A stretch of DNA of 50,215 nucleotides, taken from contig JAHFLU010000001.1 in assembly GCA_023264615.1 (NCBI GenBank), forward strand, positions 1 through 50,215, written 5' to 3'. The notes under the pieces are model-generated. The model made no database searches, was not told where the DNA came from, and saw only the letters and a list, made by a program, of their open reading frames with translations. The DNA is from a bacterium. Its GTDB lineage: Bacteria; Patescibacteriota; Minisyncoccia; Phycocordibacterales; VMGT01. Shown in pieces: positions 2,468 through 26,301 of the stretch (position 1 is its first letter; each line of letters opens with the position of its first letter). The position numbers and the translations under genes were made by a program.

Positions 2468-2493
2468 CGCCGGAGAAAGTTTTTTCTCCGGCG
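2468..2493. terminator. Perfect 11-bp stem-loop (cgccggagaaa gttt tttctccggcg) between two minus-strand genes; the T-run follows on the plus side
   Basis: Seen directly in the sequence. The orientation fits a plus-strand terminator better than a minus-strand one, so it may act as an attenuator or weak terminator. Confidence 0.4.
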
Positions 2494-2508
2494 TTTTGAT
2501 AACAAAAT

Positions 2509-3549: not shown

Positions 3550-3616
3550 GAAGTCTAAGAGAGAATATATCTTCCCTATTTTTAAAATGGATTGAAAGTT
3601 ATGTCAAATTTTTAGA

Positions 3617-3645
3617 AAAACCGCAGACTTTTAGTCTGCGGTTTT
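3617..3645. terminator. Bidirectional Rho-independent terminator (aaaaccgcagact ttt agtctgcggtttt)
   Basis: A 13-bp stem with an A-tract on one side and a T-tract on the other. It lies just downstream of the stop of the VWA gene at 3664. Confidence 0.6.
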
Positions 3646-3663
3646 CAAAAACATACGGCATCA

Positions 3664-4878: not shown

Positions 4879-6824
4879 ACAAATCCTCCTCGTTCTGCAT
4901 ACTCCAGAGTAGCTCTGTGAAGATACCCGGGCAGTGTAAGAAAGTTCGAAAAACAGAACGGAGAAATAAGTAACGCTATCTGTGGTTCAACAACGAGGAT
5001 ATCAACTTTCCATCTCTCCTTGTGTTCTTCAATCCAGAGAGCTGCGAAACAGCGTTCCAGATCCGTGCAAGAATGTGTTGCAATCCACGCAAGAAATACA
5101 TCCCGATCGGTATCAAGATGAATACCACTGCGGAGTGCAAGCGATTCAATGCTTAAATGTACTATATCTTCTCCTCGATGAATAATCGTAATAACTTTTC
5201 GTAACCCACCTATTCTGTCATATTTCATCATGATCGGAACCGATGCGTAACGCACCAGGCTTAACACGAAGTCTGTGCTCTTTTTCATGGTGGACAGTAT
5301 GGATGGAATAAAACCCCACCCCCAAAAGTAGCTTCTGATGAAAGCCGTGAGCAGAAAAACAATGACAAGCACAGGGATAATTGTTCCTTCGCGTGCGCGC
5401 AGGAAACTTTTCGGATCAAGAACAAACTCTGCATACGTTCCTCGCAACAGCGCGATCGAACTACTCGTCCACGCTCCTATCGTGCGACGCATCTGCTCCA
5501 CAACAAGGAGATCATCTGTTTTTTCTTTTGCAGATACTACCGGCTCGGTTTGTGTGGGAACGCTTGGTCGCCGCAACTCCCCGATATAGGAAACAATGCC
5601 TTCCTGGTCGGGGTGGCGAAGTTCCACGGTATTGAGTACGAAGTTACGCTCTGTCGTGATCGTGAAAGCTGTCCCTCCTCGCCAAAACTCGAGTCGCAGG
5701 GGAATATTCACAATCTCGAAGCGACCCGGAGCGGCAGGGACGAAGCGGCAGACAAACTGCGTGCGAACATACCTTTGATCAGGCGAGAATGTGCGATTTT
5801 CAAAACACGTCGATGGATCGATGCGCAGAACACCTTCGGTCTTCGGTCGCACCGCATCTTCAATACTTTTCACAAACTCGGAAATATTTGTGAGAAGTTT
5901 GAAATAAGCGTCGCCATTTTCATTTCGGAGAACGTCAATATGTACGGTAAGCTGCAGAGCGTTTTCAAACGACATCTGCTCGCTGTAGATAGTTTCGCCC
6001 TCGACAAAACGTGTGCGGATTCCGCCGCTGCTTATACGCTCCATGGTGCTTTCTGTGCGCACCGTTGATACCAATGGCACAAAAATCGCAGACGCAGAAG
6101 AAACAAAGCGATGCTTTCCGGAAAGTATTCGTGCTGTGCGCAAGGCAAAGCTCGTCTCTTTAACCCGTAGAGCTACTTTCCAGACACCATTCTTTGAATC
6201 AACGAGAGGCGTTGTCGCGTAAAATTCTATATTTTCCTTTTGGAGCGGGAGAATAACCTCTTTGTTGAACGCATCGAAATCCACACCGGGAACAAGACGC
6301 ACTTCCAGATAGTCTCGTAAGATTTTGCGTTCATTGCCCTGCAAAAAAACAAGTTGGGCTTCCTTAAGCGATTGCGTTGTGTCTTCTTTTTGCTTCTCCA
6401 TCCACTCCTGCCAACCGAGAAGCATGTTGCACACACCGATAGGCTCCGCAAAAGTGAGAACAAGGAACGATTCCATTTCTACCTTCAGCTTTTGCGACTG
6501 ATACGTTTCATTCCTAATACGCATCATCGAAAACGAAACACCTGCCTCTTCTGCTGCCCATACGGCAGGAAGCTTGTTTGGCATTGGCATTTGTGGAAAA
6601 TCAGAAACAGAACGGATAAGTACGATCGACGTGTCAAGAGAAAGACTCCTTGCATCCGCAAGATTCATTCCCATATCAACAAAATCTTGTGTGTCAACGT
6701 ATTTCAAACCGCACGCGGCAGGTACCGCATCAAGTGCAGTAACGTATGTCGGACTCATTCCCATCAACGAAAAGAGTACGAGCAGAAAAAGTGTAGATCC
6801 CCCAATAGAACGGAAGGTATCCAT
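4866..6824 (-). CDS. Hypothetical membrane protein with BatD-like architecture (signal peptide, about 450-aa ectodomain, TM, cytoplasmic tail)
   Basis: Signal peptide MDTFRSIGGSTLFLLVLFSLMG and TM segment IIPVLVIVFLLTAFIRSYFWGWGF. It overlaps the downstream VWA gene by 13 bp, which suggests they are co-transcribed. Confidence 0.45.
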   Translation of the reverse strand: MDTFRSIGGSTLFLLVLFSLMGMSPTYVTALDAVPAACGLKYVDTQDFVDMGMNLADARSLSLDTSIVLIRSVSDFPQMPMPNKLPAVWAAEEAGVSFSMMRIRNETYQSQKLKVEMESFLVLTFAEPIGVCNMLLGWQEWMEKQKEDTTQSLKEAQLVFLQGNERKILRDYLEVRLVPGVDFDAFNKEVILPLQKENIEFYATTPLVDSKNGVWKVALRVKETSFALRTARILSGKHRFVSSASAIFVPLVSTVRTESTMERISSGGIRTRFVEGETIYSEQMSFENALQLTVHIDVLRNENGDAYFKLLTNISEFVKSIEDAVRPKTEGVLRIDPSTCFENRTFSPDQRYVRTQFVCRFVPAAPGRFEIVNIPLRLEFWRGGTAFTITTERNFVLNTVELRHPDQEGIVSYIGELRRPSVPTQTEPVVSAKEKTDDLLVVEQMRRTIGAWTSSSIALLRGTYAEFVLDPKSFLRAREGTIIPVLVIVFLLTAFIRSYFWGWGFIPSILSTMKKSTDFVLSLVRYASVPIMMKYDRIGGLRKVITIIHRGEDIVHLSIESLALRSGIHLDTDRDVFLAWIATHSCTDLERCFAALWIEEHKERWKVDILVVEPQIALLISPFCFSNFLTLPGYLHRATLEYAERGGFVCRS

Positions 6825-12492: not shown

Positions 12493-12529
12493 TGCCCGTC
12501 AGTCAATCGACTGACGGGCACATTTTTTC
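12493..12529. terminator. Rho-independent terminator (tgcccgtcagtc aatc gactgacgggca + tttttt)
   Basis: Begins 9 nt after the TGA of the PLP gene. It lies between convergent genes. Confidence 0.7.
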
Positions 12530-13160
12530 AAGACGGTAAATCTTCGGGACCAACGCCAATCGTACGCATAATCTTTTCAAGCCGTTCATACGGACTTAGA
12601 CGTTTCTTCTTGTCATCTTTTCTCGGCATCTGTCCTTGTGTATCTGGCGGATTCACCCTCAAAAATTCTCCGGTGTAGGTATTGCGCAGTGTAAATCCCT
12701 TAGACCAGCTGATAACATCGTAGAGTTCACCGTGCCAGAAAACGCGCACCTTCTTTTCGACGGAAGCAATGACCGCTTCCAAAAGATCAATATATTCCGG
12801 CTCAAAGTCCAGATGTTTGAGAAAACGTTTGTTCACCTGCCAAATGAGCGTGGCAACAAGCGCATTTGCTTTCTCCGAAAAAAGCGAGTTCGCCTTTTTT
12901 TCGTTGCAATGCCTGCAGCTCGTTACAAGGTTGTTGAGTTGGAAGCCGCCCCCTTTGCTCGATGGTATGATGTGATCAAGAGAAAGAGTGTCGCTTTTGT
13001 TGGCACAATCCTCTTTACAATAGACACAGCGCAATTCATCGCGAAAGTATACAAGATACCGTATGATCAACTCAATTTTAGGACTCCCATGTATGCTTGC
13101 CCTCAACAACTTCACTATTTCTCTTTTTAATTCGCCGACATTTCTAAACGGCCGTGCCAT
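12528..13160 (-). CDS. HNH endonuclease domain protein
   Basis: CVYCKEDCANKSDTLSLDHIIPSSKGGGFQLNNLVTSCRHCNEKK is an HNH zinc-finger nuclease motif. GGAGA RBS 6 nt upstream of the ATG. Confidence 0.8.
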   Translation of the reverse strand: MARPFRNVGELKREIVKLLRASIHGSPKIELIIRYLVYFRDELRCVYCKEDCANKSDTLSLDHIIPSSKGGGFQLNNLVTSCRHCNEKKANSLFSEKANALVATLIWQVNKRFLKHLDFEPEYIDLLEAVIASVEKKVRVFWHGELYDVISWSKGFTLRNTYTGEFLRVNPPDTQGQMPRKDDKKKRLSPYERLEKIMRTIGVGPEDLPS

Positions 13161-13439: not shown

Positions 13440-14258
13440 TTACTCTGCAGAAACAAATTTTTCAATACGGGAAGCAACATCGCTAATACGCGTATTTGCC
13501 TTGATGATGTAGTCAGTAATACCCAATTTCGTTGCCCGGGCAACATCTTGCGGTTGTCCAAGATTACTCAAAATAATAACCTTAACATCTTTCCACACGG
13601 GATGTTTTCGTATTGCCGCAAGAACTTCAAATCCTGATTTGCCCGGCAGCATAAGATCGAGAAGTATAAGGTCGGGAGGCTGTTTCGTAAGATAGCTTAA
13701 CGCCTGATCTCCATCCTGCGCTATCCACACACGAATCGATTGATTCTCTTCCAAAATATCTTGATACGCGTGTACAAGGAACAAATCATCTTCCACGAAC
13801 AAAACCACCTTTCTCTTTATACCTGAAATAACCTTCCGCTCCCGCATAGACGAACGAGCGGTGGTAGTCCCGTCAATCGGCTCTTTCTGTAAAACTTCTT
13901 CACCAAGCACTTTAGAAACCTTCGCAACCACTGCGTTAATAGATTCCATTCCTTTGATGATGTAGTCTACGGCTCCTTCCTGTTTCGCCCGATCGATGTC
14001 TTCTTCGCTGCCGATCGCCGAGAGAATAACGACTGGAATATTTTTCGTAGCAGCTGTTTGTTTGAGATCGTGTAAAATATCAAACCCGCTGCGCTCCGGC
14101 AGCATAAGATCGAGAAGTATGAGATCCGGTTTTTCTTCCGTCGCTTTCGCAACACTCTCCGCAGGGTGTATTGCCGTCGAAAACTCTGCATTTTTCATAT
14201 GCTGCTGCAAGATGCGTACAATAATAGCATTATCTTCAATTGCAAGAATTTTTTTCAT
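13440..14258 (-). CDS. Response regulator with two tandem receiver (REC) domains and no output domain
   Basis: The motif LILLDLMLP (phospho-acceptor Asp) occurs twice. Conserved Lys near the end of each REC. Start overlaps the HK stop (ATGA). Confidence 0.85.
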   Translation of the reverse strand: MKKILAIEDNAIIVRILQQHMKNAEFSTAIHPAESVAKATEEKPDLILLDLMLPERSGFDILHDLKQTAATKNIPVVILSAIGSEEDIDRAKQEGAVDYIIKGMESINAVVAKVSKVLGEEVLQKEPIDGTTTARSSMRERKVISGIKRKVVLFVEDDLFLVHAYQDILEENQSIRVWIAQDGDQALSYLTKQPPDLILLDLMLPGKSGFEVLAAIRKHPVWKDVKVIILSNLGQPQDVARATKLGITDYIIKANTRISDVASRIEKFVSAE

Positions 14259-15466
14259 ACATTCTGCGAGTGATCAGAGGGTATGGGCAATACAACGTAA
14301 AATGTCGTACCAACATTCTCTTTCGAAGTAAAAAAAATCCTGCCGCCTGAAGTTTCAATGATGTTTTTAATAATGAAAAGACCAAGACCAGTACCCGTGA
14401 TACCTTTTTGTTCGACATTCCTCCCGCGGAAAAAGTTATTAAACATGTCGGCCTGTTGATCCTCGGGAATGCCGAGACCAGTATCAACAACAGAAATAAG
14501 CAGGTGTTTGTCCTGTACCTCACTATTCTGTAGAAAATCTTCAATACCGAGGCTGTGTTCTGTCTTTTTTGCGAGATTACGAATCTCGGCACCGAGTGCA
14601 TAGCGTGCATCGATCTCCACAGAACCACGCGGATTATTATACCGAATCGCATTCACGAGCAGGTTCTGAAAAACATCATGAAAACGGGCGCTGTCCCCTA
14701 AAATTTTCATGGAGACTTCCGTGGGCGTGTTTTCAAAAACAGCAACAGATATATTCTGGCTCACGGCGAGACCTTTGACTTCGTTCCCAACCTCACGTGC
14801 GATCTCCCGCAGATCAATCTCCTCTTGTTTGAGCTTGAGTCTTCCCTCTTCAAAGCGTGCCACATCGACAAGCTCATTCACAAAATTCGTAAATCTGATC
14901 GACAGTTTAAGCAGATCTTCAAGCATTTCCTGGTGCTCGAGCGAAAGTCGGTTTTTTTCCGTCTGGATAAGCTCTATTCCCCATCGTATCGTACCAAACG
15001 GCTGGCGAAGCTGATGGGACACAAACGAGAGAAATTCATACTGACGCTTCCGTACTTTGATTTCGCTGCGTATATCACGAATCACAAGTACCATACCAAT
15101 CCACTCCCCCGTTTCATCATAAAGCGGCGTTGTCGTCGCATCGACAGGAAGAAGACCACCACGGAGCTGTACAAGTGACGTTCCTTCCGGAAGCTTAATT
15201 GAGCGATCACCTGTGAGAGATTCTCTGAAGTACCAGCTTAAATCGGTACTTTGGTTTTTGCCGACAAAACGAATAGATTCTTCAATGTGTTTCGACACAA
15301 GTTCGTCAGGCATATAGCCTGTGATCAGTTCAATCGCCGCATTTGCAAGGAGAACAACACCTGCCGTATTTGTCACAATAACCGCTTCGTGAATACTCGC
15401 AAGCACAGGCACGAGGTGCGTAAGATTTTCAAGGATCTGATATGTTTTGTGCTCCGCTGTCTCCAT
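14255..15466 (-). CDS. Cytoplasmic PAS-domain histidine kinase
   Basis: H-box FVSHQLRQPFGTIRWGIE, N-box LVNAIRYN, G2 box GTGLGLFIIKNIIE. No TM segment. Confidence 0.85.
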   Translation of the reverse strand: METAEHKTYQILENLTHLVPVLASIHEAVIVTNTAGVVLLANAAIELITGYMPDELVSKHIEESIRFVGKNQSTDLSWYFRESLTGDRSIKLPEGTSLVQLRGGLLPVDATTTPLYDETGEWIGMVLVIRDIRSEIKVRKRQYEFLSFVSHQLRQPFGTIRWGIELIQTEKNRLSLEHQEMLEDLLKLSIRFTNFVNELVDVARFEEGRLKLKQEEIDLREIAREVGNEVKGLAVSQNISVAVFENTPTEVSMKILGDSARFHDVFQNLLVNAIRYNNPRGSVEIDARYALGAEIRNLAKKTEHSLGIEDFLQNSEVQDKHLLISVVDTGLGIPEDQQADMFNNFFRGRNVEQKGITGTGLGLFIIKNIIETSGGRIFFTSKENVGTTFYVVLPIPSDHSQNV

Positions 15467-15572: not shown

Positions 15573-18500
15573 ATGCAGCGATTTGTCGTCGTGGTGCTTA
15601 TTGTTGCCATTGTGGTGTCACTTTTGCCGCCACCGCATTTTGCGTACGCCGCCACATTCATTGAAGATACACAAAGCGAATTCAATGCAGGAACGCACAG
15701 CAGCACTGTATGGGATACCAATCGTGTACAGCTCTCTCTCGGTAGTACATCGGGCACTTTTACATCACAGGTTCTTGATGGCGGGACGACAAACATTCCC
15801 CGATGGGACTCTCTCGCATGGACCGAAGGTATTACAACTACAGAAATTCTTGGCATTGATACAGCTTCTGATGTTTGGGCAAGTATCGGAACATCAACGG
15901 TGTGGCAACTTGCAAAAGACGACTACAATAGCACAAACGGCAATGGCGCAACTGACATGGCAATCGACGGAAGCGAGTCTGTCTATATCCTTCAGGCGCA
16001 AGATCTCTGGAAATCCACCAATCATGGATACTCATGGACATTTATAAATACCGACTACAATGGTGCAGGCAGCAGCGCGAATGGGATTAACATCGTAACT
16101 GACAACAGCAACAACGTATTTATTGTTGCCGGAAATGAAGACGTGTACAAATCCACAAATGGCGGTACATCATTTTCAAGTGTTGCTTCCAATTTCAACG
16201 GAGGGACGGGAAATGTTCAGGGAATGGTTGCTGTAGGAGCTAATCTCTTCGCTGTTGATGTCGGTGCCGATGTTTGGCAATCCACTGACAGCGGTGCCAC
16301 ATGGACCGCCCTCAATACGGATTACAATAGCACCGCCGCTAACGGCAATTCCGACGAAATGACGGCGGACAACAGTGGCAACCTCTATATCCTCGAAAGT
16401 CAGGATGTGTGGAAATCAACCGACAGCGGGACAAATTGGACAAAAGTCAACGACGACTACAATGGCAGCGAGTCGCAAAACGGCATAGAAATTGCAGGTG
16501 ACGCGAGCGGCAATCTCTACATCGTCGAAGGCGATGAAGACATCTGGAAATCCACTGATGGCGGGACAAACTGGACAAAAACTGCAACAAATATAAATGG
16601 TGCAGGTGGCAACTTCGCAGGCCTTGTGACCTTTACTGTTTCAGGCGATGTGACCATGCAAGTCCGCTCGGGGAGTGCAAATCCTCCGACCGGAAGTTTT
16701 CTTGGGCCTGATGGCAGCACAGGAACCAATTTTACAACACCCGGAGGGGAAACGGTCAGCGTTTCAAATAATCGCTATTTCCAGTATCGCATCACCTTTT
16801 CCTCCGACAGTGAAACATATTCTCCTACGCTGACTTCGGCCACCGTCACCTATACGCTTGTTGAGCCAATAACAGCAACCGCGTCCGTTGATACCACATG
16901 GATAAAGGGAGCCGAAACAAGTAAAAATATTATTTTTACGCTCAATAATAGCAGCGGCTCATCGGCAGCAATACAGTGGGTACGATTCACACGCCCCTCG
17001 GGCAGCTATACGATCACGGGCGGTTCCGCAAGCGGCTGGAGTTCCTCTGCAAGCGCTTCCGCCGTAACGTTTACCGGCGGTAGTATTTCTGCGGGAAGTA
17101 GTAAATCTTTTACCGTCATTCTTGATGCAGCGTCTACTGATGACGCATCGACAGCGTGGACAATCGCTGCGGACGACCAGTCTGACGGCGCAAGCACCGT
17201 CGGCATAACAGCCGCTTCAGGTAGCTCTATCAGCACCGGCATTGACGCAACGGCGCCGACAAATGTTTCTATTGCGTCAGTCAGCACTGATTCGCCAACG
17301 CAAGTAACAGCAACTGCCGCAAGTTCAACCGATTCCGCTTCGGGTGTACATTCCGCAACATATTGGTTCGATGAGACGACCGCAGCAGCAGGAGCCACCG
17401 ATTCCACCGCATGGCAAGGAAGCAAGGTCTACACTGATGCCGGTCTTACGACAGGAACACAATATTGCTATCGTGTCAAAGCACGCGATGCAGTCGGCAA
17501 CGAGTCCGCATACTCTTCGGCCTCGTGCGCCACACCTTCCGCTTCGGCAGATACAACGGCACCTTCCACAGTTACCAATCTCGCTGCCGGCTCACCCGCA
17601 GCTACGCAGATCACACTGACCTGGACCGCTCCGGGAGACGATGGCACTTCGGGTACTGCAACACGATACGATCTGCGGTACGCGACGTCCGCACTTACTG
17701 ACGGAACGTGGAGCAGCGCAACAGAGGCTACCGGCGAGCCAACACCTTCTGTTGCAGGATCATCCGAGTCGCTTACGATTACTGGCCTTTCAAACAGTAC
17801 CGGCTATTATTTCGCACTGAAAACGGAAGACGATAATGCCAATATTTCGGCGATCTCTAATATCACTGGAGCGACCACAACAGCACCATCCTCTGATACA
17901 ACAGCACCAACAATCTCAAACGTTATTGCAGGAAGTATCACTTCGACGACTGCTACTATTTCCTGGACAACAAACGAAGCTGCGGACAGCGAGGTTGAAT
18001 TTGGCTCGACTGCAGGATATGGCCAATCTGCTACGGAGGGTTCCTATGGCACCTCCCATACCATCAGACTCTCGAACCTCGCACCGAACGCCACGTACCA
18101 TTACCGTGTTCGTTCAAAAGACTCTTCAAATAATCTCGCATCCACAGCAGATTTTACATTTACAACAAATACTCTTTCTGAAAGCAGCAGCACGAGTGGT
18201 GGTTCCTCCGACAAAAGCGGGCCTATCATTTCTGATATCATCGCATCAACGACGTATAAAACAGCAATTGTCAGCTGGAAAACGCAAGAGAGCGCAACCG
18301 CACGTATTGAATTTGGCAAAACTTCGAGCTACGGAACATCTACAAAAGAAACAAAATTCTATGCAAACGAACACTCTGTTTTCCTCGATAGTCTTGAAGC
18401 AGACACAGAATATAACTTTCGCGTCATCTCGGCTGATCTCCTCGATAATGCTTCATTTTCAGACAATCAGAAGTTTAAGACCACGAAACTCCCTGCCCCC

Positions 18501-20759
18501 GCACTTGCTCCCGCACCTCCCCCTCCAAAAATCAGCGAGGTCTCTGTTGTCGCCGTCCGGCCTACATCCGCAAAAATCACCTGGAAAACTGACCTTCCTG
18601 CAACGTCACAGATCGTCTTTGGAACAACACCCAAACAATATAAAATATTTTCACAGGAATTTTCCTCTTTAGAGATAGCACACGACAGAACAATCTCCGA
18701 TCTTATTCCGGGAACAACATATTATTTTCAAATCGTAACCAGAAACGAGCGCGGAATCGAGAGCCGTTCAGACGAAGGCATATTTACGACCGAGAGTATT
18801 GAAATTCAGACGGTCGTGCAGATTCAAAAACCAAATGCGCTTCCTCCCGGATCACCAGGGACACTTACGCCATTTATTGTCGCGGGAGAAACAACTGTTG
18901 CGGTACCGATCATTGCAACCCAAGGAGACACTAGTGCACCGGAGGTCACTCTTTTTGATTTCGATGAGAATCCCACACAAAATACCGCGCCTGTCATCCA
19001 CGGCCGCGCACGCGACAGTGCCGGTGTTATTGAGAGCGTTGCATATTCCTCTGACACTGGTACGACATGGCATCCGGTTTCCGAAGTTGCAGGAATTGGC
19101 TCTTCCGCAGCAACATTTAACGCAAAGATACCCAACCTGCGCGATGGCAACTACACAATTCTTTTCCGATCTCGTGATAATTCAGAAAATATCGGTACAT
19201 CAAACTCGCGCATTCTTATCATCGATATCAAACCACCAGTAACAGGAGCAAATATTATGCTCATGGGTTCACAATCCATTATTCCCTCCAAGTTCGGCAC
19301 AATCGAAACACTTTCCGGCATCACGCAACGTTTCGTTACCACAGCCATCGGCGGAGCAACATCGGTGACCCTCATTGCAAAAAAAATCGATCCAAACAAA
19401 ACAGGTGAGGAACCAGCCACAACAACACAATCAGAGCAACAACACCAGAGCACCCGCATCGAGGGCACTATCCGTCTTAAAAATAGAGGCGGGCAAAGTA
19501 TTAAACTCGTCAATAAAACCAGGCTGCAAGGAGCAAACGGCAAAATATACCGGATTTCTTCTGGTGAACTCACTGTTCCGCAAGCAAACGGCGACAAAGC
19601 AGGTACAGCCGAAGCAGTGATTGTTGCGGATGGCAATGGTGCAGAATTTAACCTGGAAGTCGGGAATATGACCCTCCCCGGCCTTGTCGGAACAGAATAT
19701 TTTAACCTTGTGCAGGGCGAGATAACCTCACCAATCAAGCTCCTTGAAGCTGTTTCTCCCGAGACAAACAAAGATCAGATCGAATTCCCTTTGGTTTATT
19801 CAAAAGCACAAGATGTCTGGTTTGGGGACATAATGCTCCCTGATCCAGGAACATATCAAACCTTTATTTTTGCAGTTGATGGGGCAGAGCGCCAATCAAT
19901 CCGACTAATGAATGAGATCCATGTAGGAGCCTCCGGCATCATACAAGATGAGAACACCAAACAACCAGTGCGTGGATCACGCGTAACCGTATATCAATAT
20001 TCTGATCAAGTTGAAAATTATCAAGTATGGCCTGGAGAGATTTTTAATCAGGCAAACCCACAGATTACTGCTAACACGGGTGAATATCGCTTTATTCTTC
20101 CGCCAGGAAAATATTATCTTAAAATTGAGCACGACGATTATGCCACACTCTACAGCAACATTTTCACTCTCACGGAACATAAAACGGTTAATGCTTCGTT
20201 CTCTCTTCATAAAAAAAATCAATTGCTATCATTTACCATACCGTTTATACACAAAAAAATTTCTTTACCGGCAGTACCTAATTTTCTCAATAATGCCGTA
20301 AATCATGCGGACGAAGCTGTTGTCAACCCACCTCAAGCAATCAGTCAGCTTATTGGTAAAACTGCTCCTCTTTTTTCTCTCCCCCTCGCTTCAACAAACG
20401 AGCCGATCGATATACGATATCTGCGCGGAAAAAAAACAATACTCTCCACCTGGTCGACGTGGTCACCCCACTCTCAAGTACAGATTCCGATCCTCGACGC
20501 AATTGTCCGAAGCGATCCGAGTAATGTGCGGGTGCTTCTCGTCTCACTTCAGCAAAGTGCAGGTGTCGTTGAAACATACTTACGACGCGGCAATTACACA
20601 ATACCAAGCGTCGTAGACACTGAAGGCAAGATCACGGAAATATATCCTATTTTTTCTCTCCCGCAGCATTTTTTTATTGACCGTAAGGGAATTGTTCGCG
20701 AAGTACATATCGGGTTTCTTAATGAAGCAGATGTGCGAAAAAAACTCGAACAGTTATAG
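15573..20759 (+). CDS. Giant secreted, cell-surface multidomain protein: BNR beta-propeller, FN3-like domains, carboxypeptidase-regulatory-like domain, and a C-terminal TlpA/redoxin-like domain with CxxC replaced by SxxS
   Basis: Signal peptide MQRFVVVVLIVAIVVSLLPPPHFAYA. Six SxDxGxxW BNR blades. Three ISWTT...EFG...Y.YRV FN3 units. The C-terminus GKKTILSTWSTWSPHSQVQIPIL...FFIDRKGIV aligns with the TlpA/ResA fold, but both catalytic Cys are Ser. Confidence 0.8.
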   Translation: MQRFVVVVLIVAIVVSLLPPPHFAYAATFIEDTQSEFNAGTHSSTVWDTNRVQLSLGSTSGTFTSQVLDGGTTNIPRWDSLAWTEGITTTEILGIDTASDVWASIGTSTVWQLAKDDYNSTNGNGATDMAIDGSESVYILQAQDLWKSTNHGYSWTFINTDYNGAGSSANGINIVTDNSNNVFIVAGNEDVYKSTNGGTSFSSVASNFNGGTGNVQGMVAVGANLFAVDVGADVWQSTDSGATWTALNTDYNSTAANGNSDEMTADNSGNLYILESQDVWKSTDSGTNWTKVNDDYNGSESQNGIEIAGDASGNLYIVEGDEDIWKSTDGGTNWTKTATNINGAGGNFAGLVTFTVSGDVTMQVRSGSANPPTGSFLGPDGSTGTNFTTPGGETVSVSNNRYFQYRITFSSDSETYSPTLTSATVTYTLVEPITATASVDTTWIKGAETSKNIIFTLNNSSGSSAAIQWVRFTRPSGSYTITGGSASGWSSSASASAVTFTGGSISAGSSKSFTVILDAASTDDASTAWTIAADDQSDGASTVGITAASGSSISTGIDATAPTNVSIASVSTDSPTQVTATAASSTDSASGVHSATYWFDETTAAAGATDSTAWQGSKVYTDAGLTTGTQYCYRVKARDAVGNESAYSSASCATPSASADTTAPSTVTNLAAGSPAATQITLTWTAPGDDGTSGTATRYDLRYATSALTDGTWSSATEATGEPTPSVAGSSESLTITGLSNSTGYYFALKTEDDNANISAISNITGATTTAPSSDTTAPTISNVIAGSITSTTATISWTTNEAADSEVEFGSTAGYGQSATEGSYGTSHTIRLSNLAPNATYHYRVRSKDSSNNLASTADFTFTTNTLSESSSTSGGSSDKSGPIISDIIASTTYKTAIVSWKTQESATARIEFGKTSSYGTSTKETKFYANEHSVFLDSLEADTEYNFRVISADLLDNASFSDNQKFKTTKLPAPALAPAPPPPKISEVSVVAVRPTSAKITWKTDLPATSQIVFGTTPKQYKIFSQEFSSLEIAHDRTISDLIPGTTYYFQIVTRNERGIESRSDEGIFTTESIEIQTVVQIQKPNALPPGSPGTLTPFIVAGETTVAVPIIATQGDTSAPEVTLFDFDENPTQNTAPVIHGRARDSAGVIESVAYSSDTGTTWHPVSEVAGIGSSAATFNAKIPNLRDGNYTILFRSRDNSENIGTSNSRILIIDIKPPVTGANIMLMGSQSIIPSKFGTIETLSGITQRFVTTAIGGATSVTLIAKKIDPNKTGEEPATTTQSEQQHQSTRIEGTIRLKNRGGQSIKLVNKTRLQGANGKIYRISSGELTVPQANGDKAGTAEAVIVADGNGAEFNLEVGNMTLPGLVGTEYFNLVQGEITSPIKLLEAVSPETNKDQIEFPLVYSKAQDVWFGDIMLPDPGTYQTFIFAVDGAERQSIRLMNEIHVGASGIIQDENTKQPVRGSRVTVYQYSDQVENYQVWPGEIFNQANPQITANTGEYRFILPPGKYYLKIEHDDYATLYSNIFTLTEHKTVNASFSLHKKNQLLSFTIPFIHKKISLPAVPNFLNNAVNHADEAVVNPPQAISQLIGKTAPLFSLPLASTNEPIDIRYLRGKKTILSTWSTWSPHSQVQIPILDAIVRSDPSNVRVLLVSLQQSAGVVETYLRRGNYTIPSVVDTEGKITEIYPIFSLPQHFFIDRKGIVREVHIGFLNEADVRKKLEQL
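15885..16630 (+). repeat. Six tandem intragenic repeats of about 141 bp (47 aa) encoding BNR/Asp-box blades: DVWKSTDSGTNWTKVNDDYNG...
   Basis: Repeated peptide blocks in the translation: WQSTDSGATWTALNTDYNS, WKSTDSGTNWTKVNDDYNG, WKSTDGGTNWTK and three more. Confidence 0.6.
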
Positions 20760-20787: not shown

Positions 20788-22467
20788 ATGTGGGAGTTAT
20801 TCTGGGTACAAAATAGCCACTACGTTCTTGAGATTTTCATCGCGTTCCTCATGGTAACGGCAGGTTGGATATATCTTGACGGCTGGATGATTGAACGAAA
20901 AGCAAGAACGCTTACGCGTTCTATTGGTTTTTTTGTGTTAACCTTTTGGGGATTTTTAAGTGCTGCACCGAATGGCCTCATCGGCCTTGGGAATATCAAT
21001 CAGGAAATGCTCGTTGATCTCGTCGGACTCGTCGGATTTGGTCTCATTCTGGCAAGTCTTCTTGTGGATCCTATTCCGGTGCGGCCTGGCAAAAGAGCGC
21101 CATTTTTCTTCGCCTGGCTCCTTGAAAAGCCAACTGATCTTGCCCTTATTCCCCCTGCCATTTTCGCACCGCTCAAAACAGGGTTTGCATTTGTTGCACC
21201 CATATTTGCCGTCGTCGGTTTTTTGTTTACGCAACCGAAAATCTGGCTTCTTGTTTTCTCGAGTATCACAGCAATACTCCTCTATCTTCACTATTCGTAC
21301 GGAATACAGAGCGAGTGGAAATATTTCTACCGCGGTTTTCTTTTTATTTCCATAGGGCTTGCTGTCGCTCTTCTTGGCTTGTTTCAAAACTCTTCGAATG
21401 TCCTTCTTGCAAAACTTGCCGCACCAAACGGGCTTTTTTGGATTATTGAATATATTTTCAAACTCATCGGCGCTGTTTCACTCGGTGTTTGGGCATGGGG
21501 TTTTATCCGTTTTCGCATATTTCCCCAAATTTTTTCAAGTTTTGTGGCGCTTTCATTTCTCATTTTTGTCTTAACGACTATCTTTTACACCGGTTTTCTT
21601 CTCAATAGAACACAAGATCGCGCTATGGAAGACCTTGAGACTAATGTAAAAACACTTGAATTCGCACTCTCCAAAATAAAGGAGTCCGCGATTCTCGCAG
21701 CACGTATTGCCTCAACCAACCCCCAAGCACGCGAGGCTGTCCGTACAAACGACAAAGAAGCTATTTTTAATAACCTAAATGCGCTCATGTTTGAGAACGA
21801 AACAGACTTCATGCTCGCAGTTAATAAGGGTGGCGAAGTTATGATGCGTGCCGAGGATCGTGAGCGTTATGGCGATAGCATTGCGCAGGATCCGGTGGTC
21901 TGGCGTGCGCTCGATGGTAAAGCCGTCGTCACCATCCAATCTGAAGAAGGCGTTACTGTGCCAACAATCGCAATTAGGGCAGCGTCCCCCATCGTTGACA
22001 CACGCGAAGACGGCAAGCCAGAGATCATCGGGGCTGTCGTCACAGGATACCTCATGGATATCGCATTTGTTGACGGTGTCAAAAAGATCACGGGTCTTGA
22101 TATCACTGTTTTTGCAAATGATGTTGCGGCAGCGACAACATTTACCCTTCCCAACTCAACCACGCGTCTCATCGGAACACGCGAAATCGACGAGAATATT
22201 ATCGGTTCCGTTCTTACAAAGGGTGAGCGGCATACAGGCACCGCGTCTGTTCTCAATCAGCCTTATCTCGCATCGTATATCCCCATATTTGACGTTGAAG
22301 AAACCCCGATCGGCATGCTCTTTACTGGCCGTTCCCAGGCATCCATCCTCGCCGTAGCAAGCGATACACTGCGCCTCACATTCTCTCTCTCAATTCTCTT
22401 CATGATCCTTTCCATTCTTCCTCTCGCATGGTTAGCACGTTTCATTACCCACAACCAACAGGTTTAA
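20788..22467 (+). CDS. Polytopic membrane protein with a C-terminal periplasmic Cache-like sensor domain, a final TM and no cytoplasmic output domain
   Basis: About eight N-terminal TM helices. Then an extracytoplasmic segment of roughly 255 aa, then TM helix LSILFMILSILPLAWLARFI and a stop 10 aa later. Confidence 0.6.
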   Translation: MWELFWVQNSHYVLEIFIAFLMVTAGWIYLDGWMIERKARTLTRSIGFFVLTFWGFLSAAPNGLIGLGNINQEMLVDLVGLVGFGLILASLLVDPIPVRPGKRAPFFFAWLLEKPTDLALIPPAIFAPLKTGFAFVAPIFAVVGFLFTQPKIWLLVFSSITAILLYLHYSYGIQSEWKYFYRGFLFISIGLAVALLGLFQNSSNVLLAKLAAPNGLFWIIEYIFKLIGAVSLGVWAWGFIRFRIFPQIFSSFVALSFLIFVLTTIFYTGFLLNRTQDRAMEDLETNVKTLEFALSKIKESAILAARIASTNPQAREAVRTNDKEAIFNNLNALMFENETDFMLAVNKGGEVMMRAEDRERYGDSIAQDPVVWRALDGKAVVTIQSEEGVTVPTIAIRAASPIVDTREDGKPEIIGAVVTGYLMDIAFVDGVKKITGLDITVFANDVAAATTFTLPNSTTRLIGTREIDENIIGSVLTKGERHTGTASVLNQPYLASYIPIFDVEETPIGMLFTGRSQASILAVASDTLRLTFSLSILFMILSILPLAWLARFITHNQQV

Positions 22468-22498
22468 TGACAATCATCCAAAGCCGTGTGCTGTATTT

Positions 22499-22530
22499 AA
22501 AAATACCACTTCGTCTGAAGTGGTATTTTT
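22499..22530. terminator. Bidirectional Rho-independent terminator (aaaaataccacttc gtct gaagtggtattttt)
   Basis: Perfect 14-bp stem including A/T tracts. It lies between the convergent sensor gene and the REC gene. Confidence 0.75.
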
Positions 22531-22987
22531 AATCTTTATTTTTGTGTGAAGTTTCTTCGATAACTTTTTTGCTTGCTAACGAACTTGCAGCATCCGGTAC
22601 CTCTTTCGATTTTGTGTATCCCGCAAGCACTTCTTTCACCTTTGCCACAACTTCGTCAGGACGATATGCGGACTTCACCAAATAGGCTACTGCGCCCAAT
22701 TCGAGGCCGCGTTCAATATCCTCTTGTGACCCCCCTAAATTGGTAAGAATGATAATAGGTATTTTGCTAATAGATGGGTCAGATTTTACACGCTCAAGTA
22801 CCTGCAGACCATTCACTTTTGGCATCATCACATCGAGAAGGACAAGATCGGGAGAAAATGAACGTATCTTCACAAGACCGTCCTCTCCGTTCACCGCAAC
22901 TTCAACTTCATAACCATCATTAATGAGCTTGCGCTGATACATGCGCACCATGAGCGGGTCGTCTTCTACAAGTAAAAGCTTGGCCAT
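22529..22987 (-). CDS. Single-domain (CheY-like) response regulator
   Basis: MAKLLLVEDDPLMV...DLVLLDVMMPKVNG...KIPIIILT. REC domain only. Confidence 0.85.
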   Translation of the reverse strand: MAKLLLVEDDPLMVRMYQRKLINDGYEVEVAVNGEDGLVKIRSFSPDLVLLDVMMPKVNGLQVLERVKSDPSISKIPIIILTNLGGSQEDIERGLELGAVAYLVKSAYRPDEVVAKVKEVLAGYTKSKEVPDAASSLASKKVIEETSHKNKD

Positions 22988-23070: not shown

Positions 23071-23922
23071 TCACTCCTTCACCTTGCCCCCGCGTGATTT
23101 GAGATATATCTCATGATAATCATGCAGTTGCATAGCACGTTCAGTTCCCGCAATGGGTAATCTGAAACTAAACGTAGTCCCTTTCCCGAATCCTTCCGAC
23201 GTAACCGATATTTCCCCACCGAGAGCTTTCAAAATATGCCACACAAGATTGAGTCCCAAACCTGTTCCCTTTTCTACTGGCAAAACATGCTTTTCAATAT
23301 CAGGAAATTGTTTAAAAAGCTTTGAGAGATCTTCTGTTTTAATGCCCCCGCCCGTATCGGTGACGGTAACGAGAACTGTATCCGAAACGCTGCCATGCCG
23401 ATCATCTTTAATATTTACCGCGATAGAGCCTCCGCGGGGGGTAAATTTGAAAGCATTGCCGATTAAGTTGTCAAAAATTTGAAATAACCGTGAGCGATCG
23501 CTATATACAAACGGTGTATCTTTTAAACAAGTCATATAGAGAACAAGTCTTTTTTCTCTTGCAATCGGGGAAAATTCCTTCTCGACCGTCTCGAGCAATT
23601 CGCAGATATTGATTTCTTCCAGATCAAAACGCATTTGTCCCGTCGTTATCCGGGCAATATCGAGCATATCATCAACAAGCCCAGTGAGCCGGTCTGCCCC
23701 AAAAAGTGCGTCAACGAGATACTCGCGCGTAGCAGCCGGTATCTCGCCCGATTCCCCCTTGAGAACCATGTCCAAGTTTCCGCGAATGATATCGAGCGGT
23801 GTTCGCAGCTCATGGTTCGTCATCCGGATAAATTCATCTTTGACACGTGCCTGTTCATTCAGGTTTTTAATTTCCTGCTCAAGCATTTCTATCGAGCGAT
23901 CTGTACTCTCTCCTTCAACCAT
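23071..23922 (-). CDS. Soluble histidine kinase (coiled-coil, HisKA, HATPase_c)
   Basis: H-box MTNHELRTPLDIIRGNLD, N-box FDNLIGNAFKFT, G1 box DTGGGI, G2 box GTGLGLNLV. No TM segment. Confidence 0.85.
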   Translation of the reverse strand: MVEGESTDRSIEMLEQEIKNLNEQARVKDEFIRMTNHELRTPLDIIRGNLDMVLKGESGEIPAATREYLVDALFGADRLTGLVDDMLDIARITTGQMRFDLEEINICELLETVEKEFSPIAREKRLVLYMTCLKDTPFVYSDRSRLFQIFDNLIGNAFKFTPRGGSIAVNIKDDRHGSVSDTVLVTVTDTGGGIKTEDLSKLFKQFPDIEKHVLPVEKGTGLGLNLVWHILKALGGEISVTSEGFGKGTTFSFRLPIAGTERAMQLHDYHEIYLKSRGGKVKE

Positions 23923-23988: not shown

Positions 23989-24909
23989 CTAAGCCGGTTT
24001 TTGGAGTTCTTCTGTTCCAGTCCACGTCTGCGGAAGCGTAAAATAAAGGACGGATCCCGTGGCGCATGAAAAAATTCCCGCAGAACCTCCATGCGCCTCT
24101 GCCCATCGCGAGACAACCGTAAGACCCACGTGGTGCGAATGCAATAGTTGTCCTGCAGTAAACTCTTTCGTATCAATAGTTCGCAAATCGTCAATTGCAT
24201 CGCTGTATATTGTTTTGACCTCTCCCTCATCAAATATTTTGCGTGATGTTGCAACAGCAAGTGCAACCATCTCTCGTGAAAATTTTTCAGTCTTATTCCC
24301 GAATGTACATTTTTGGCCTGTGCTTTCTCCTGCCTCTTCTATTGTCTGCCCTTCTCGTACTCCAAACACATGCACATCAATAGTATCACCCGCCCTCGAA
24401 CGTTCGATTGTCGTTGAAAGCATATTGTCGATCATGTGGCTCACTGCACGCGCATCAAAAGCAGTTTTAGCGGACACATTTTTTGCCACATCCATCGAAA
24501 GAATAACAGAAGCTTTCATTGCTCGTGAACCGTAAAAATGCAGCCGCTCTTCAACAATCATCGCAAAAGAATAATCTCGAATGAAAATATCAAACGTGTT
24601 ATTTTCAAGACGCGACACATCAATATAATACCGGAGCGTTTCAAGCATCCGCACAACGTTTTCGTCAATAATATCGGTGTATTCCGCCATTCGTTCCTTA
24701 TCGTTTTGCATCTTTTCAGAACCCAAAAGCTCTGTAAAATTACGGATGGAGCCAAGCGGCGTATACAGGCTGTGTGCCATCGCATGGAGTCGCTTTTCAT
24801 ACTGTTCCATTTGGTGGCGCACCATTTTTCTTGTGCGACGCAATACCCCCAGTCCATATACGGCGTGAATAACGAGCGTGATGAAGAGCAAAAAGATAAA
24901 ACTGTCCAT
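23989..24909 (-). CDS. Histidine-kinase-like membrane protein with divergent ATP-binding motifs (possible pseudokinase)
   Basis: TM helix FIFLLFITLVIHAVYGL and H-box-like AMAHSLYTPLGSIRNF. An N-box-like stretch MIDNMLSTTIERS is present, but I see no clear DxGxG. The G2 box is degenerate (HHVGLTVV). Confidence 0.55.
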   Translation of the reverse strand: MDSFIFLLFITLVIHAVYGLGVLRRTRKMVRHQMEQYEKRLHAMAHSLYTPLGSIRNFTELLGSEKMQNDKERMAEYTDIIDENVVRMLETLRYYIDVSRLENNTFDIFIRDYSFAMIVEERLHFYGSRAMKASVILSMDVAKNVSAKTAFDARAVSHMIDNMLSTTIERSRAGDTIDVHVFGVREGQTIEEAGESTGQKCTFGNKTEKFSREMVALAVATSRKIFDEGEVKTIYSDAIDDLRTIDTKEFTAGQLLHSHHVGLTVVSRWAEAHGGSAGIFSCATGSVLYFTLPQTWTGTEELQKPA

Positions 24910-24969
24910 CTTCTATATAATACAACACGCGACATATGTTTTCTATCCAAAGACTACTTTTCACCGTGT

Positions 24970-26301
24970 ATGGGATATAATGGACGAATGGAAGTCTTCA
25001 GTAAAAAAGCATATCTTCTCATTGTCATCATCACGTGTTCTCTCGCTTTTCTTCTTGGCACGATAAAGACAATACAAAATACACATGTCCGTCTGGCATC
25101 TCCTCCTCCATACCTGCCGCCCCCTCCCCCGTTGCCACCAAGTCGCAAGCTACCGCCTCCCGTATCGCCACTTGATACCTATAAAAAAACGGCAGTCCTC
25201 GAGAAACCCCTCATCCTTAAAGGAGATGAGCAACTTATCATAGAAAACACACAATATCTTGCGCAAGATAATATCACGCTCCGCGACAATGCAACGCTTA
25301 TCATCAGAAATAGCTTTTTTGAACATCGAGGACTCGGGAAAAGCGTTTCCTTGCGGGCAGAAGGAAACAGTAAAGTCATTCTTGAAAACTCCCTCCTCAC
25401 CGCTCCGTGCGACGAGATGGCATATTGGCAGTTCAGCGGCTCTGCATCCTTTGAAACAAATACTGTCCGCCCGGCAGCCAATGGTTGCTTTCCACAACAA
25501 CGGTTCGAGGAGAAAGCATCTGGGGAAATCAACTCCTGGAGCAATGTCTCTGTCACCCTCTGTGATGCATCGAGCCTCAACCTTAAAAATTCCCGCAATA
25601 CAATCATCGACCTCTGTTTCAGTCCGCTTGCAATCGTCCGCGAGTCATTCCCGATAACACCTACATCTGTATACGCATTCCCCGGCTCAGACGATTTCAG
25701 AGTAGATTTCAAAGTTACGCTTACGAATGTAACAGTACAACACTGGGGAATCCATACTGCTCCAAAAACAGATATTGCTCTCAATGATATGCATAATCTC
25801 AACGTGCATGTTATCGCAGGCAAACCATGGGAAAAGAAATCTATTATACTTTCTGATCTTCGAAAAAAACTATACGCGCAGGAGACAATTCTTTTCTCTG
25901 ATGCCAAGCTGCGCCTCCAAAATGTAACGGTTAATAACTGGGATTTAACCGCAACATATAACAACAAAATTGATGTACAAAACAGCGAGATCAGAAATAT
26001 TTTTGCAAAAGAAGAGGGCGTTGTTGCGATCGAAAACAACAGTATTGTGAATAACATCGAGACAACAGACAGTTCAGAGATCACGGTGACAAATGCAACA
26101 GTCCTCAACAGTATAAGTTCTAATCAACTCAGTAAAATCACACTCACGAATTCTGTCTTTAAGGCAGCCTCGACAACAGATTTTTTTCATGTTCCATCAC
26201 AGACAATTCGAGCACGAGATCGATCCACCATAACACTTACCGATACACCGCTTAAAGGCACAGTCATCCAAGAACATGGCGGACGCGTTGTTGTGCAATA
26301 G
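24970..26301 (+). CDS. Membrane-anchored parallel beta-helix repeat protein with a polyproline linker
   Basis: TM helix AYLLIVIITCSLAFLLGTI, then PPPYLPPPPPLPPSRKLPPPVSP, then repetitive N/T-rich motifs (NVTVNNWDLTATYNNKIDVQNSEIRN...) typical of right-handed beta-helices. The upstream part of the track ORF (24538-24969) is antisense to the HK-like gene and is rejected. Confidence 0.55.
   Translation: MGYNGRMEVFSKKAYLLIVIITCSLAFLLGTIKTIQNTHVRLASPPPYLPPPPPLPPSRKLPPPVSPLDTYKKTAVLEKPLILKGDEQLIIENTQYLAQDNITLRDNATLIIRNSFFEHRGLGKSVSLRAEGNSKVILENSLLTAPCDEMAYWQFSGSASFETNTVRPAANGCFPQQRFEEKASGEINSWSNVSVTLCDASSLNLKNSRNTIIDLCFSPLAIVRESFPITPTSVYAFPGSDDFRVDFKVTLTNVTVQHWGIHTAPKTDIALNDMHNLNVHVIAGKPWEKKSIILSDLRKKLYAQETILFSDAKLRLQNVTVNNWDLTATYNNKIDVQNSEIRNIFAKEEGVVAIENNSIVNNIETTDSSEITVTNATVLNSISSNQLSKITLTNSVFKAASTTDFFHVPSQTIRARDRSTITLTDTPLKGTVIQEHGGRVVVQ

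Follow-up and report, generated by a model that had tools for sequence, protein, structure and literature searches.

TlpA-like proteins have been described as a family of CXXC-containing, periplasmic thioredoxin (Trx) domains (PMC8945050). In this work we analysed a domain of this fold in which both cysteines are missing, and which forms the extreme C-terminus of a giant secreted protein of 1728 amino acids (aa). The gene lies within a window of 50,215 nucleotides (nt), i.e. the whole stretch of DNA that was analysed (positions 1 to 50,215 of contig JAHFLU010000001.1, from a bacterium of the Patescibacteriota lineage), and is followed by a gene for a membrane protein with a double PDC/Cache domain. 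In ResA and TlpA the substrate groove binds an unfolded segment of the partner against the cis-proline loop, and in Trx-fold proteins this loop binds the substrate backbone. An acidic residue located three positions after the second cysteine, Glu80 in ResA, tunes reactivity and substrate recognition. The giant gene and the corresponding sites in its product are listed below, with coordinates in the window, strand and supporting evidence.

15573..20759 (including the stop codon), + strand: gene of the giant secreted protein, 1728 aa (open reading frame (ORF) list, translation, orthologues)
20343..20756, + strand: Cys-less ResA/TlpA-type Trx-fold domain, aa 1591-1728, at the extreme C-terminus (Pfam, phmmer against PDB, AlphaFold2 (AF2), Foldseek)
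20463..20474, + strand: former CxxC site, now S-P-H-S, codons TCA CCC CAC TCT (alignment to the CxxC of StoA, 3hdc and 3kcm)
20481..20483, + strand: Gln1637, at the position of ResA Glu80, second Cys + 3 (column statistics)
20661..20663, + strand: retained cis-proline Pro1697 in the LPQHFF loop (alignment to the cis-Pro loop of StoA, 3hdc and 3kcm)

That the giant protein ends in a TlpA/ResA-type Trx fold had been proposed in an earlier, sequence-only reading of this locus, and the proposal was confirmed by profile searches, by comparison with solved structures and by modelling. Both strings on which it relied, GKKTILSTWSTWSPHSQVQIPIL and FFIDRKGIV, are found in the C-terminus. Residues 1594-1710 score 49.4 bits with the Pfam model AhpC-TSA (cut-off 26, E 5.6e-13), and Redoxin matches the C-terminus with 42 bits (cut-off 26.6), the two models together spanning residues 1594-1721. 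A phmmer search of PDB returned StoA as the best match (3.4e-14), followed by two Geobacter thioredoxins (3hdc and 3kcm), ResA and CcmG; identity to the solved TlpA-like members is 24-28%, with E of about 1e-14. In these alignments WCxxC stands opposite W-S-P-H-S and the cis-Pro loop opposite LPQHFF. The context of the dead site is W-S-T-W-S-P-H-S, in which the W-x-x-W framework is kept, while StoA, 3hdc and 3kcm carry Glu at the column of Gln1637.

The AF2 model of the domain alone (60 sequences) is a confident, ResA-like one, with a predicted local distance difference test score (pLDDT) of 94.5 and a predicted template modelling score (pTM) of 0.89. It shows the expected order of elements, including the N-terminal beta-hairpin and the central insert, and SPHS takes the very place of CxxC, at the N-terminal end of helix alpha1. 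The top Foldseek matches are ResA structures, with TM-scores of 0.86/0.92 and a root-mean-square deviation of 1.2 A over 134 columns. The family models of NCBIfam scored the isolated C-terminal 169 aa far below their cut-offs: 61 bits vs 210 for StoA, 60.4 vs 170 for ResA, 36.3 vs 359 for DsbE and 11.9 vs 230 for TlpA. The scores of the full giant protein (StoA 55.6, ResA 54.7 and DsbE 30.5 bits) are likewise all far under the cut-offs. The domain has no Cys at all, so the peroxidatic cysteine with its PxxxT/SxxC context is also missing. Judged by its sequence, the C-terminal domain is a TlpA/ResA-type fold predicted to be incapable of thiol chemistry: a putative pseudo-oxidoreductase, in which Cys-x-x-Cys plus Glu have become Ser-x-x-Ser plus Gln, with the fold kept.

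The sequence-only reading had also taken the active site as SPHS and its serines as genuine, and both points hold. Serine codons, TCA and TCT, occupy the two positions in nt 20463-20474, and independent assemblies concur. Sequencing error or recoding was considered as a source of the serines and rejected, since the independent assemblies agree and TCA and TCT are not both near-misses of TGY (TCA to TGY takes two base changes).

The loss of the cysteines is shared by all close homologues. Both are absent in 13 of 13, with the pattern W[AS]TW[SA]P[HLQ][AS]; Ser itself is interchanged with Ala, which stands at the first Cys position in the close relatives P0010 and P0011, and CxxC survives in wider relatives. 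With both cysteines gone, and their loss conserved among homologues, the earlier description of the domain as redox-inert is well supported. A domain-profile search of 1.84 billion cluster representatives (50% clusters) gave 35,864 relatives at E <= 0.001, with scores that fall sharply below the top 11, and among the best 150 of these 35,864 representatives Cys is absent at both positions in 86. A neighbour-joining tree of 192 domains groups 84 of the 88 Cys-less ones in a single clade, whose purity is 84/85; the nearest neighbour is of the same type for 84/88 Cys-less and 97/98 CxxC domains.

Column statistics were computed for 148 Cys-less vs 104 CxxC domains. None of the 148 related Cys-less domains has a Cys at either active-site position. 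The first position is occupied by S (87), N (16), A (15), D (9) or L (9), and also by H, V, E, W, G and F; the second by S, A, T, M, G, V or F. The surroundings of the site are nearly constant: the preceding Trp (Trp1630 in the giant protein) and an Asp are each kept in 99% of the Cys-less domains, two Gly are also kept, and the cis-Pro is found in 146/146 of the Cys-less domains and in every CxxC domain. The position of ResA Glu80 holds Gln in 146/148 Cys-less domains, vs Glu in 63% of the CxxC relatives. Further conserved residues are specific to the clade (in domain numbering, Gln79 (86%), Arg91-Gly92-x-Tyr94 and Phe120) and sit in the central insert and beside the cis-Pro strand. Among close orthologues of the giant protein, identity reaches 81% in the Trx domain, which shares the top rank among regions, vs 64% for the propeller, which is among the lowest, and 37% for a variable insert described below. 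Because of this clade-wide conservation of residues and the 81% identity of orthologues, the domain is maintained rather than decaying. The pattern marks it as a pseudo-oxidoreductase that is kept by purifying selection and belongs to one large, essentially monophyletic lineage. The idea that the Trx domain is the single best-conserved part throughout the family was examined as well and rejected, as the whole C-terminal core is similarly conserved.

The second main observation concerns the genes that accompany the Cys-less domain. Those next to the giant gene are listed below.

20788..22467, + strand: partner gene, coding for a 559-aa membrane protein with multiple transmembrane (TM) segments and a double PDC/Cache domain (Pfam, PDB, TM scan)
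22497..22532, + strand: terminator-like hairpin with a 16-pair stem and a T-run, between convergent genes (consensus scan, a pattern match only)
22529..22987, - strand: receiver-only response regulator, 152 aa (Pfam Response_reg)
23071..23922, - strand: soluble HisKA-HATPase kinase, 283 aa, with no sensor domain or TM segment (Pfam)
23989..24909, - strand: HisKA-only protein, 306 aa, with no recognisable ATPase domain (Pfam)
14255..15466, - strand: PAS-HisKA-HATPase kinase, divergent from the giant gene (Pfam)
13440..14258, - strand: double-receiver protein (Pfam)

A gap of 29 nt separates the giant gene from the Cache gene, which has the same orientation, and a consensus scan found no terminator-like site between the two. 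Viewed from the Trx side, the pairing has no exception: wherever a homologue locus extends downstream (L001/2/7, L003, L004, L009-L013, L022 from Woesebacteria, and L023), the next gene is a Cache gene on the same strand. The pairing holds though the other neighbours differ: L003 carries GH130 and ABC genes there, and L004 lies beside dnaA and dnaN. In L012 and L023 the Trx protein and the Cache gene share one strand with several receiver genes, and a long kinase lies upstream.

The same was seen when the search was started from the Cache side. A search with an alignment of 10 homologues gave at least 113 confirmed relatives; the matches listed provided 80 metagenome loci (27-61% identity), to which the Cache-side counts of this paragraph apply. 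An ORF ending in the Trx domain lies directly upstream, on the same strand, in 59 of the 63 loci with usable upstream sequence. Wherever the motif was visible it was Cys-less (56/56, zero CxxC), in all cases with the cis-Pro. Parcubacteria, Woesebacteria and contigs labelled Saccharibacteria all show the same-strand adjacency, even where Cache identity is as low as 26-30%, and the sources of the module, where named, are all Patescibacteria of these three groups. Groundwater sites yielded these contigs. The dead-Trx protein and the Cache protein without an output module are thus a near-obligate gene pair, with two-component genes alongside.

The Cache partner consists of a multi-TM N-terminal part of about 270 aa, an extracytoplasmic double PDC/Cache region (aa ~275-525) and a last TM segment, after which the chain ends within about 8 aa. 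Pfam matches are sCache_3_3 (78.5 bits vs 28.8, 5.8e-22) and dCache_3 (34.4 vs 25.7), TM segments lie on both sides of the Cache domain, and the PDB matches are ligand-binding domains of chemoreceptors and DcuS/CitA. NCBIfam gave a weak match of the whole protein to DcuS/MalK sensor kinases, over the Cache region only. No cytoplasmic output module is present: about 8 residues follow the last TM segment in all 10 aligned homologues. The N-terminal multi-TM domain matched no family in Pfam (E<=10), NCBIfam or PDB, and is strongly conserved (e.g. WAWGFIRFRIFPQIFSSF). A loop of the Cache protein that reads SLLxDPVPVxPG (columns ~95-107 of the alignment) is conserved as well. Across the homologue loci the Cache partner (phmmer 1e-125 to 1e-231) surpasses the giant protein in conservation. 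Like the dead domain, it has no cysteines.

The multi-TM domain was compared with CcdA/DsbD, ResB and known families in general, and no match emerged: the profile searches of Pfam, NCBIfam and PDB gave Cache, PDC and sensor matches only. With no CcdA/DsbD/ResB match to the Cache partner in these searches, a decayed res-type operon of cytochrome-c maturation finds no support as a reading of the locus. CcdA/DsbD-like genes were absent from the inspected neighbourhoods, and genes for cytochrome-c or copper-centre maturation are not encoded alongside the dead-Trx domain. The earlier suggestion that the domain might be a scaffold for another oxidoreductase found no backing, there being no conserved oxidoreductase gene near the giant-protein locus.

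Two-component genes are frequent downstream of the pair. Of the 46 loci whose sequence extends at least 2.5 kb past the Cache gene, 43 have a histidine kinase no more than 5 kb downstream, and 29 have a receiver (REC) within 3 kb. Counterparts of the 152-aa receiver were found at 1e-74 to 1e-90 in L001, L003, L004, L007, L009, L011 and L013, and counterparts of the 283-aa kinase lie beside the module in L001, L004, L007, L009 and L013; the 306-aa HisKA-only protein is kept only in the closest relatives, L001 and L007. The PAS-kinase lies directly upstream in L001-L007 and L013. A histidine kinase or REC upstream of the Trx protein is rare in the wider family (2/30 loci), so the PAS-kinase is specific to the close clade. 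It was considered as a core member of the module and rejected on this ground.

All three response regulators inspected in the window (13440..14258, 22529..22987 and 43554..44048, - strand) are receiver-only, one of them with two REC domains, and none has a DNA-binding output. As the regulators are receiver-only and the 306-aa ORF has HisKA with no recognisable ATPase domain, the gene content suggests an output by phosphorelay or protein-protein contact instead of classical transcription control. In the sequence-only reading the giant protein was viewed as an adhesin-like scaffold. It is indeed a secreted multi-domain protein; the description is nevertheless too narrow, because the gene stands upstream of, and paired with, an output-less Cache protein, near histidine kinases and receivers, a context that points to the extracytoplasmic part of a signalling module.

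The Cys-less representatives share a C-terminal core which in Pfam terms consists of an Ig-like domain of the Big_13/Y_Y_Y type, then CarboxypepD_reg and then Redoxin. Their N-terminal parts differ and comprise laminin-G domains, FN3 arrays, DUF2341, Asp-box propellers and PQQ-type propellers. Three size classes occur: about 190 aa, about 600-960 aa and >1200 aa. In the longer proteins the dead domain essentially always ends within 12 residues of the C-terminus. Complete members of about 740 aa have a pairwise identity of 0.3-0.43 in the C-terminal two-thirds and 0.22-0.30 in the N-terminal third. An N-terminal signal-like segment is present in 35/37 complete family members, and 36/37 have no further TM-like segment.

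The smallest class, about 30 of the representatives (range P0117-P0236), comprises Cys-less TlpA-like proteins of about 190 aa with a single N-terminal hydrophobic or TM segment (22/22 N-termini inspected). These appear to be an unfused version of the dead-Trx domain. In L024 the parts are spread over three consecutive genes, for a surface protein of 1414 aa with CarboxypepD_reg at its end, a Cys-less Trx protein of 190 aa with a TM anchor (5307..5879) and a Cache protein; FIST, kinase and receiver genes come next. In L105 a stand-alone dead Trx (6001..6579) directly follows a surface-protein gene; the surface genes of L024 and L105 are both of about 1400 aa. Parts that are fused in one genome and encoded by split genes in another would, by the Rosetta-stone argument, work together. 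The contigs L014-L021 (Meiothermus and Gemmatimonadales) also came up, through a PQHFF-type pattern; the Meiothermus TlpA-like relatives are 24-29% identical.

The layout of the giant protein follows from the features listed here.

15573..15650, + strand: Sec-type signal peptide, aa 1-26, ...HFAYA|A (hydropathy scan; cleavage site from the AxA rule)
15837..16649, + strand: six Asp-box (BNR-type) repeats of about 45 aa, aa 89-359, a probable six-bladed beta-propeller 'head' (motif positions, homologue matches)
17253..18827, + strand: array of FN3 and Pur_ac_phosph_N-type modules, about aa 561-1085, the 'stalk' (Pfam)
18828..19397, + strand: conserved Ig-like (Big_13/Y_Y_Y-like) region, the start of the family-wide C-terminal core (weak Pfam matches)
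19398..19772, + strand: hypervariable insert, aa 1276-1400 (identity among orthologues)
19932..20207, + strand: CarboxypepD_reg-like (transthyretin-like) domain, aa 1454-1545 (Pfam)

The reading frame 15573..20759 is uninterrupted for 1728 codons. It is a real gene and no frameshift fusion, since an identical protein (P0004) is present on an independent assembly and four full-length orthologues (1725-1732 aa, 66-73% identity) come from independent assemblies; one of the sources is named Parcubacteria group bacterium Gr01-1014_48. The hydropathy scan shows a single hydrophobic segment, 1-27, and the only two cysteines of the whole protein, residues 632 and 652, both lie within the FN3 array.

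The domains that the sequence-only reading had assigned to this protein fared somewhat differently. Its FN3-like modules are clearly present (fn3 in five stretches, E 1.8e-20; Pur_ac_phosph_N in four, E 1.9e-27). For the six-bladed BNR propeller, the six repeats were found, with canonical Asp-boxes (SxDxGxxW) at aa 148, 194, 237, 282 and 327, spaced by 43-46 aa, and a degenerate first copy. The propeller region of homologues matches Sortilin-Vps10/BNR/PSII_BNR (PF15902, PF02012, PF14870); in the giant protein itself no Pfam BNR model reached the threshold (the best was BNR_6, E 0.95), and the PDB match of the region, to the GH74-like BNR protein 6p2l, is weak (E 1e-3). The carboxypeptidase-regulatory-like domain scores slightly below the cut-off in the giant protein (31.3 bits vs 32.3, E 2.7e-7) and passes it in the family members P0109, P0122 and P0133. 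In a similar way, the Big_13/Y_Y_Y matches are weak in the giant protein and significant in family members, and the Ig-like region is kept in distant homologues (phmmer 1e-74 to 1e-89).

An additional Asp-box-like motif, SSDTGTTW (aa 1159; 19044..19067, aa 1158-1165), lies within the Ig-like region, distant from the propeller, and distant homologues show S-x-D-G-G-x-x-W at the matching position. The insert at aa 1276-1400 has 37% identity among close orthologues vs about 80% in its flanks, and two distant homologues, P0009 and P0012, lack it; the insert may represent a surface patch that is diversifying. As far as the domain composition tells, the giant protein is the large extreme of the family, in which a long FN3 stalk and a probable Asp-box propeller head have been added to the common base.

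The window contains a second surface-protein/sensor module (43554..49851, - strand) and several other features.

46984..49851, - strand: 955-aa surface protein with fn3, CarboxypepD_reg and a C-terminal peptidoglycan-binding domain (Pfam)
45786..46580, - strand: 264-aa ORF with no Pfam match
43990..45780, - strand: dCache_1-HAMP-HisKA-HATPase kinase (Pfam)
43554..44048, - strand: receiver-only regulator of the second module (Pfam)
35026..38211, - strand: 1061-aa protein whose sole Pfam match, near the C-terminus, is the prokaryotic SLOG domain (LSDAT_prok)
12528..13160, - strand: free-standing HNH endonuclease gene, between a pyridoxal-phosphate enzyme of Cys/Met metabolism and the signalling cluster

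In the second module the genes follow one another on one strand in the order surface protein, 264-aa ORF, dCache-HAMP kinase and receiver. As this matches the logic of the dead-Trx module, with a wall-binding anchor, the genome makes repeated use of one design, a surface protein with a C-terminal anchoring module beside a Cache sensor. The HNH endonuclease gene occupies the same place at the orthologous locus L001. Four consecutive ORFs of 389, 346, 404 and 652 aa (1336..6824, - strand) have no Pfam match at E <= 1e-3, and a 587-aa ORF (24538..26301) has none in Pfam or NCBIfam.

Based on these observations, we suggest that the dead Trx domain performs no chemistry and that its old substrate groove may have become a fixed binding site for a protein or peptide. 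Binding rather than catalysis fits the strong conservation around the former active site. Through the groove, the secreted protein would dock at the membrane onto the co-encoded Cache protein. As the stand-alone versions carry a membrane anchor, the dead-Trx domain probably occupies the part of the assembly nearest the membrane; the fused versions are without any other anchor and would therefore need a docking site. The giant protein would be a long FN3 stalk bearing the Asp-box propeller head, and the pair would act as a single extracytoplasmic sensor, whose variable head contacts the environment, e.g. a glycan or a host-cell surface, while the Cache/TM protein relays its state through the membrane to the co-encoded soluble kinases and receiver proteins. 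For this proposal, in which a non-catalytic dead-Trx domain provides the dock that links a variable extracellular 'antenna' with a Cache transducer, we consider the chances of being right and wrong about evenly balanced. More tentatively, and with doubts prevailing, we extend it to a widespread, hitherto unrecognised surface signalling system of the Candidate Phyla Radiation (CPR), composed of an antenna with exchangeable heads, a pseudo-oxidoreductase coupler (fused or membrane-anchored) and an output-less Cache transducer that would signal to soluble kinases and receiver-only regulators, the whole perhaps serving as a sensor of host contact.

Several findings weigh against the docking proposal. 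Gene adjacency indicates functional linkage at most, which is less than contact between the two proteins. In 4 of the 63 Cache loci among the matches listed, the same-strand Trx ORF is missing upstream (in one of the four it is adjacent but convergent), and in L105 the gene after the dead Trx codes for an FN3 protein, cut by the contig end. In the family of about 740 aa, the Trx domain has a pairwise identity of 0.30-0.37 vs 0.38-0.43 for the Ig-like part, so that it is not uniquely conserved. Finally, the AF2 model of the C-terminal 640 aa (9 sequences) has a mean pLDDT of 55, with about 30 in the Trx part, and the geometry between the domains cannot be read from it.

Other explanations of the same data have to be considered. 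Conservation of the groove and its extreme C-terminal position suit any fixed ligand, and the dead Trx domain might bind a wall or membrane component, or an external or host ligand, in place of the Cache protein. The adjacency would then reflect co-regulation only, and the surface protein would be an output or a co-expressed cargo of the two-component system, outside the sensor. The second surface protein of the window ends in a peptidoglycan-binding domain, so wall anchoring is used by similar proteins. We regard this explanation as unlikely, though a serious one, since the same-strand adjacency is retained across lineages at 26-30% Cache identity, i.e. more tightly than in a typical regulator-target pair, and the split genes preserve the order surface protein, Trx, Cache. 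Moreover, the Cache protein has no output domain and hence needs partners. A redox-independent chaperone or assembly factor, which like the b' domain of protein disulfide isomerase (PDI) would hold unfolded parts of either protein, giant or Cache, while these are exported and fold, and would enter no stable signalling complex, seems distinctly improbable. Cys-free Trx folds do act as peptide-binding chaperone domains (PDI b/b', ERp29), and the cis-Pro is kept in 100% of the Cys-less domains. A general holdase, however, has no need of clade-specific polar residues such as the Gln at the Glu80 position (99%) and Gln79 (86%), and the strict one-to-one pairing of genes argues for a dedicated partner.

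Enzymatic function with non-cysteine chemistry, e.g. a Ser nucleophile together with the His after the cis-Pro, was also taken into account. In the AF2 model the Ser does lie at the N-terminus of helix alpha1, and many family members have a His two residues beyond the cis-Pro (LPxH). The first position varies, however (S, N, A, D, L and others, with Ala in P0010 and P0011), where a catalytic nucleophile would not, so we reject this possibility as very improbable. The least credible view, to which we attach next to no weight, is that the domain is a decaying remnant without function, or that its serines are errors of sequencing or assembly. Nothing beyond the missing cysteines speaks for it; the agreement of independent assemblies and the two base changes between TCA and TGY stand against an error, while a mere remnant is hard to reconcile with 148 domains that, at 25-35% overall identity, hold Trp, Gln, Asp and cis-Pro at 99-100%, and with a domain tied for the best-conserved part among close orthologues.

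Public databases label members of this family as 'TlpA disulfide reductase family', 'redoxin domain-containing' or 'peroxiredoxin', and the chemistry that these names imply is missing throughout the clade. The JGI label 'peroxiredoxin' on P0011 and P0123 is thus a fold-level annotation only, as the domain has no Cys. This calls for a large-scale correction of annotations, by which the domain would no longer be classed as a thiol-disulfide oxidoreductase or peroxiredoxin, and bears on the redox capacity of CPR bacteria inferred from gene lists. The clade also offers a clear case of a bacterial pseudoenzyme: a ResA/TlpA lineage has lost Cys, Cys and Glu (now S/A, S/A and Q) while the surrounding surface stayed near-invariant, making it a natural counterpart of the mutants used for inactivating ResA. 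Strict pairing with an output-less Cache protein, together with the nearby kinases, defines a candidate multi-protein sensory module. CPR bacteria have small genomes, and little is known about the way in which they perceive a host or their environment. With heads that vary (Asp-box propeller, laminin-G, PQQ-type propeller, FN3 arrays) and a base that stays constant, these proteins may form a family of receptors with exchangeable specificity. If the proposal is true, the module might be a device with which episymbiotic Patescibacteria sense contact with the host-cell surface. The sequence-only reading supposed that the architecture was undescribed, and we found no description of the Cys-less TlpA clade, the architecture or the Cache pairing in the full-text literature, a body of text outside which most subscription-journal papers lie. 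The novelty here is the pseudo-ResA clade that marks a secreted-protein/Cache/two-component module; pseudoenzyme Trx folds and accessory proteins combined with sensors are known kinds.

A comparison with known systems shows how these kinds are combined. PDI b/b', ERp29 and calsequestrin offer an analogy, as in them a Trx fold without CxxC is retained by selection and serves non-covalent binding in place of catalysis, a role that would be similar here. They belong to the PDI lineage of the eukaryotic endoplasmic and sarcoplasmic reticulum and have no detectable sequence relation to the dead-Trx domain, which has a bacterial TlpA/ResA parent and is found at the bacterial cell surface in a signalling context. 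The logic of an extracytoplasmic protein that acts through a membrane relay on a phosphorelay resembles LuxP-LuxQ, TorT-TorS, NlpE-CpxA and, above all, RcsF-IgaA-RcsCD, and IgaA, like the putative Cache transducer, is a multi-pass membrane protein without kinase activity. The likeness is one of analogy: LuxP, TorT, NlpE and RcsF are unrelated in sequence and fold, none being a Trx fold or a giant FN3/propeller protein, and their interactions have been demonstrated, whereas the one proposed here is inferred. In the human protein NHLRC2 (PMC6107167), a Trx-like domain and a beta-propeller are also joined in one polypeptide; its propeller is of the NHL type, the order of domains is reversed, and the protein is eukaryotic and cytosolic, with no signalling gene context.

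Nearer in gene organization is the resABCDE cluster of Bacillus subtilis, where a ResA-type domain is likewise clustered with a membrane protein having a large extracytoplasmic part and with a kinase/regulator pair (ResD-ResE). There, however, ResA is catalytically active and serves cytochrome c maturation, and the Cache protein is not similar to ResB or ResC, so that an evolutionary link between the two loci is speculation. The closest relatives of the domain itself are ResA, StoA, CcmG (DsbE) and TlpA (cd02966), with which it shares the fold and its topology, the N-terminal beta-hairpin, the central insert, the W-x-x-W framework, the cis-Pro loop and the extracytoplasmic site; the split relatives of about 190 aa even retain the single N-terminal TM anchor typical of ResA/TlpA. 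It differs from them in the replacement of both Cys by S/A and of Glu by Q, in NCBIfam scores far below the cut-offs, in its fusion to the C-terminus of a secreted multi-domain protein and in its association with Cache and two-component genes. The dead-Trx domain belongs to the TlpA/ResA/CcmG lineage by fold and descent, and in terms of function it lacks the features that define this family.

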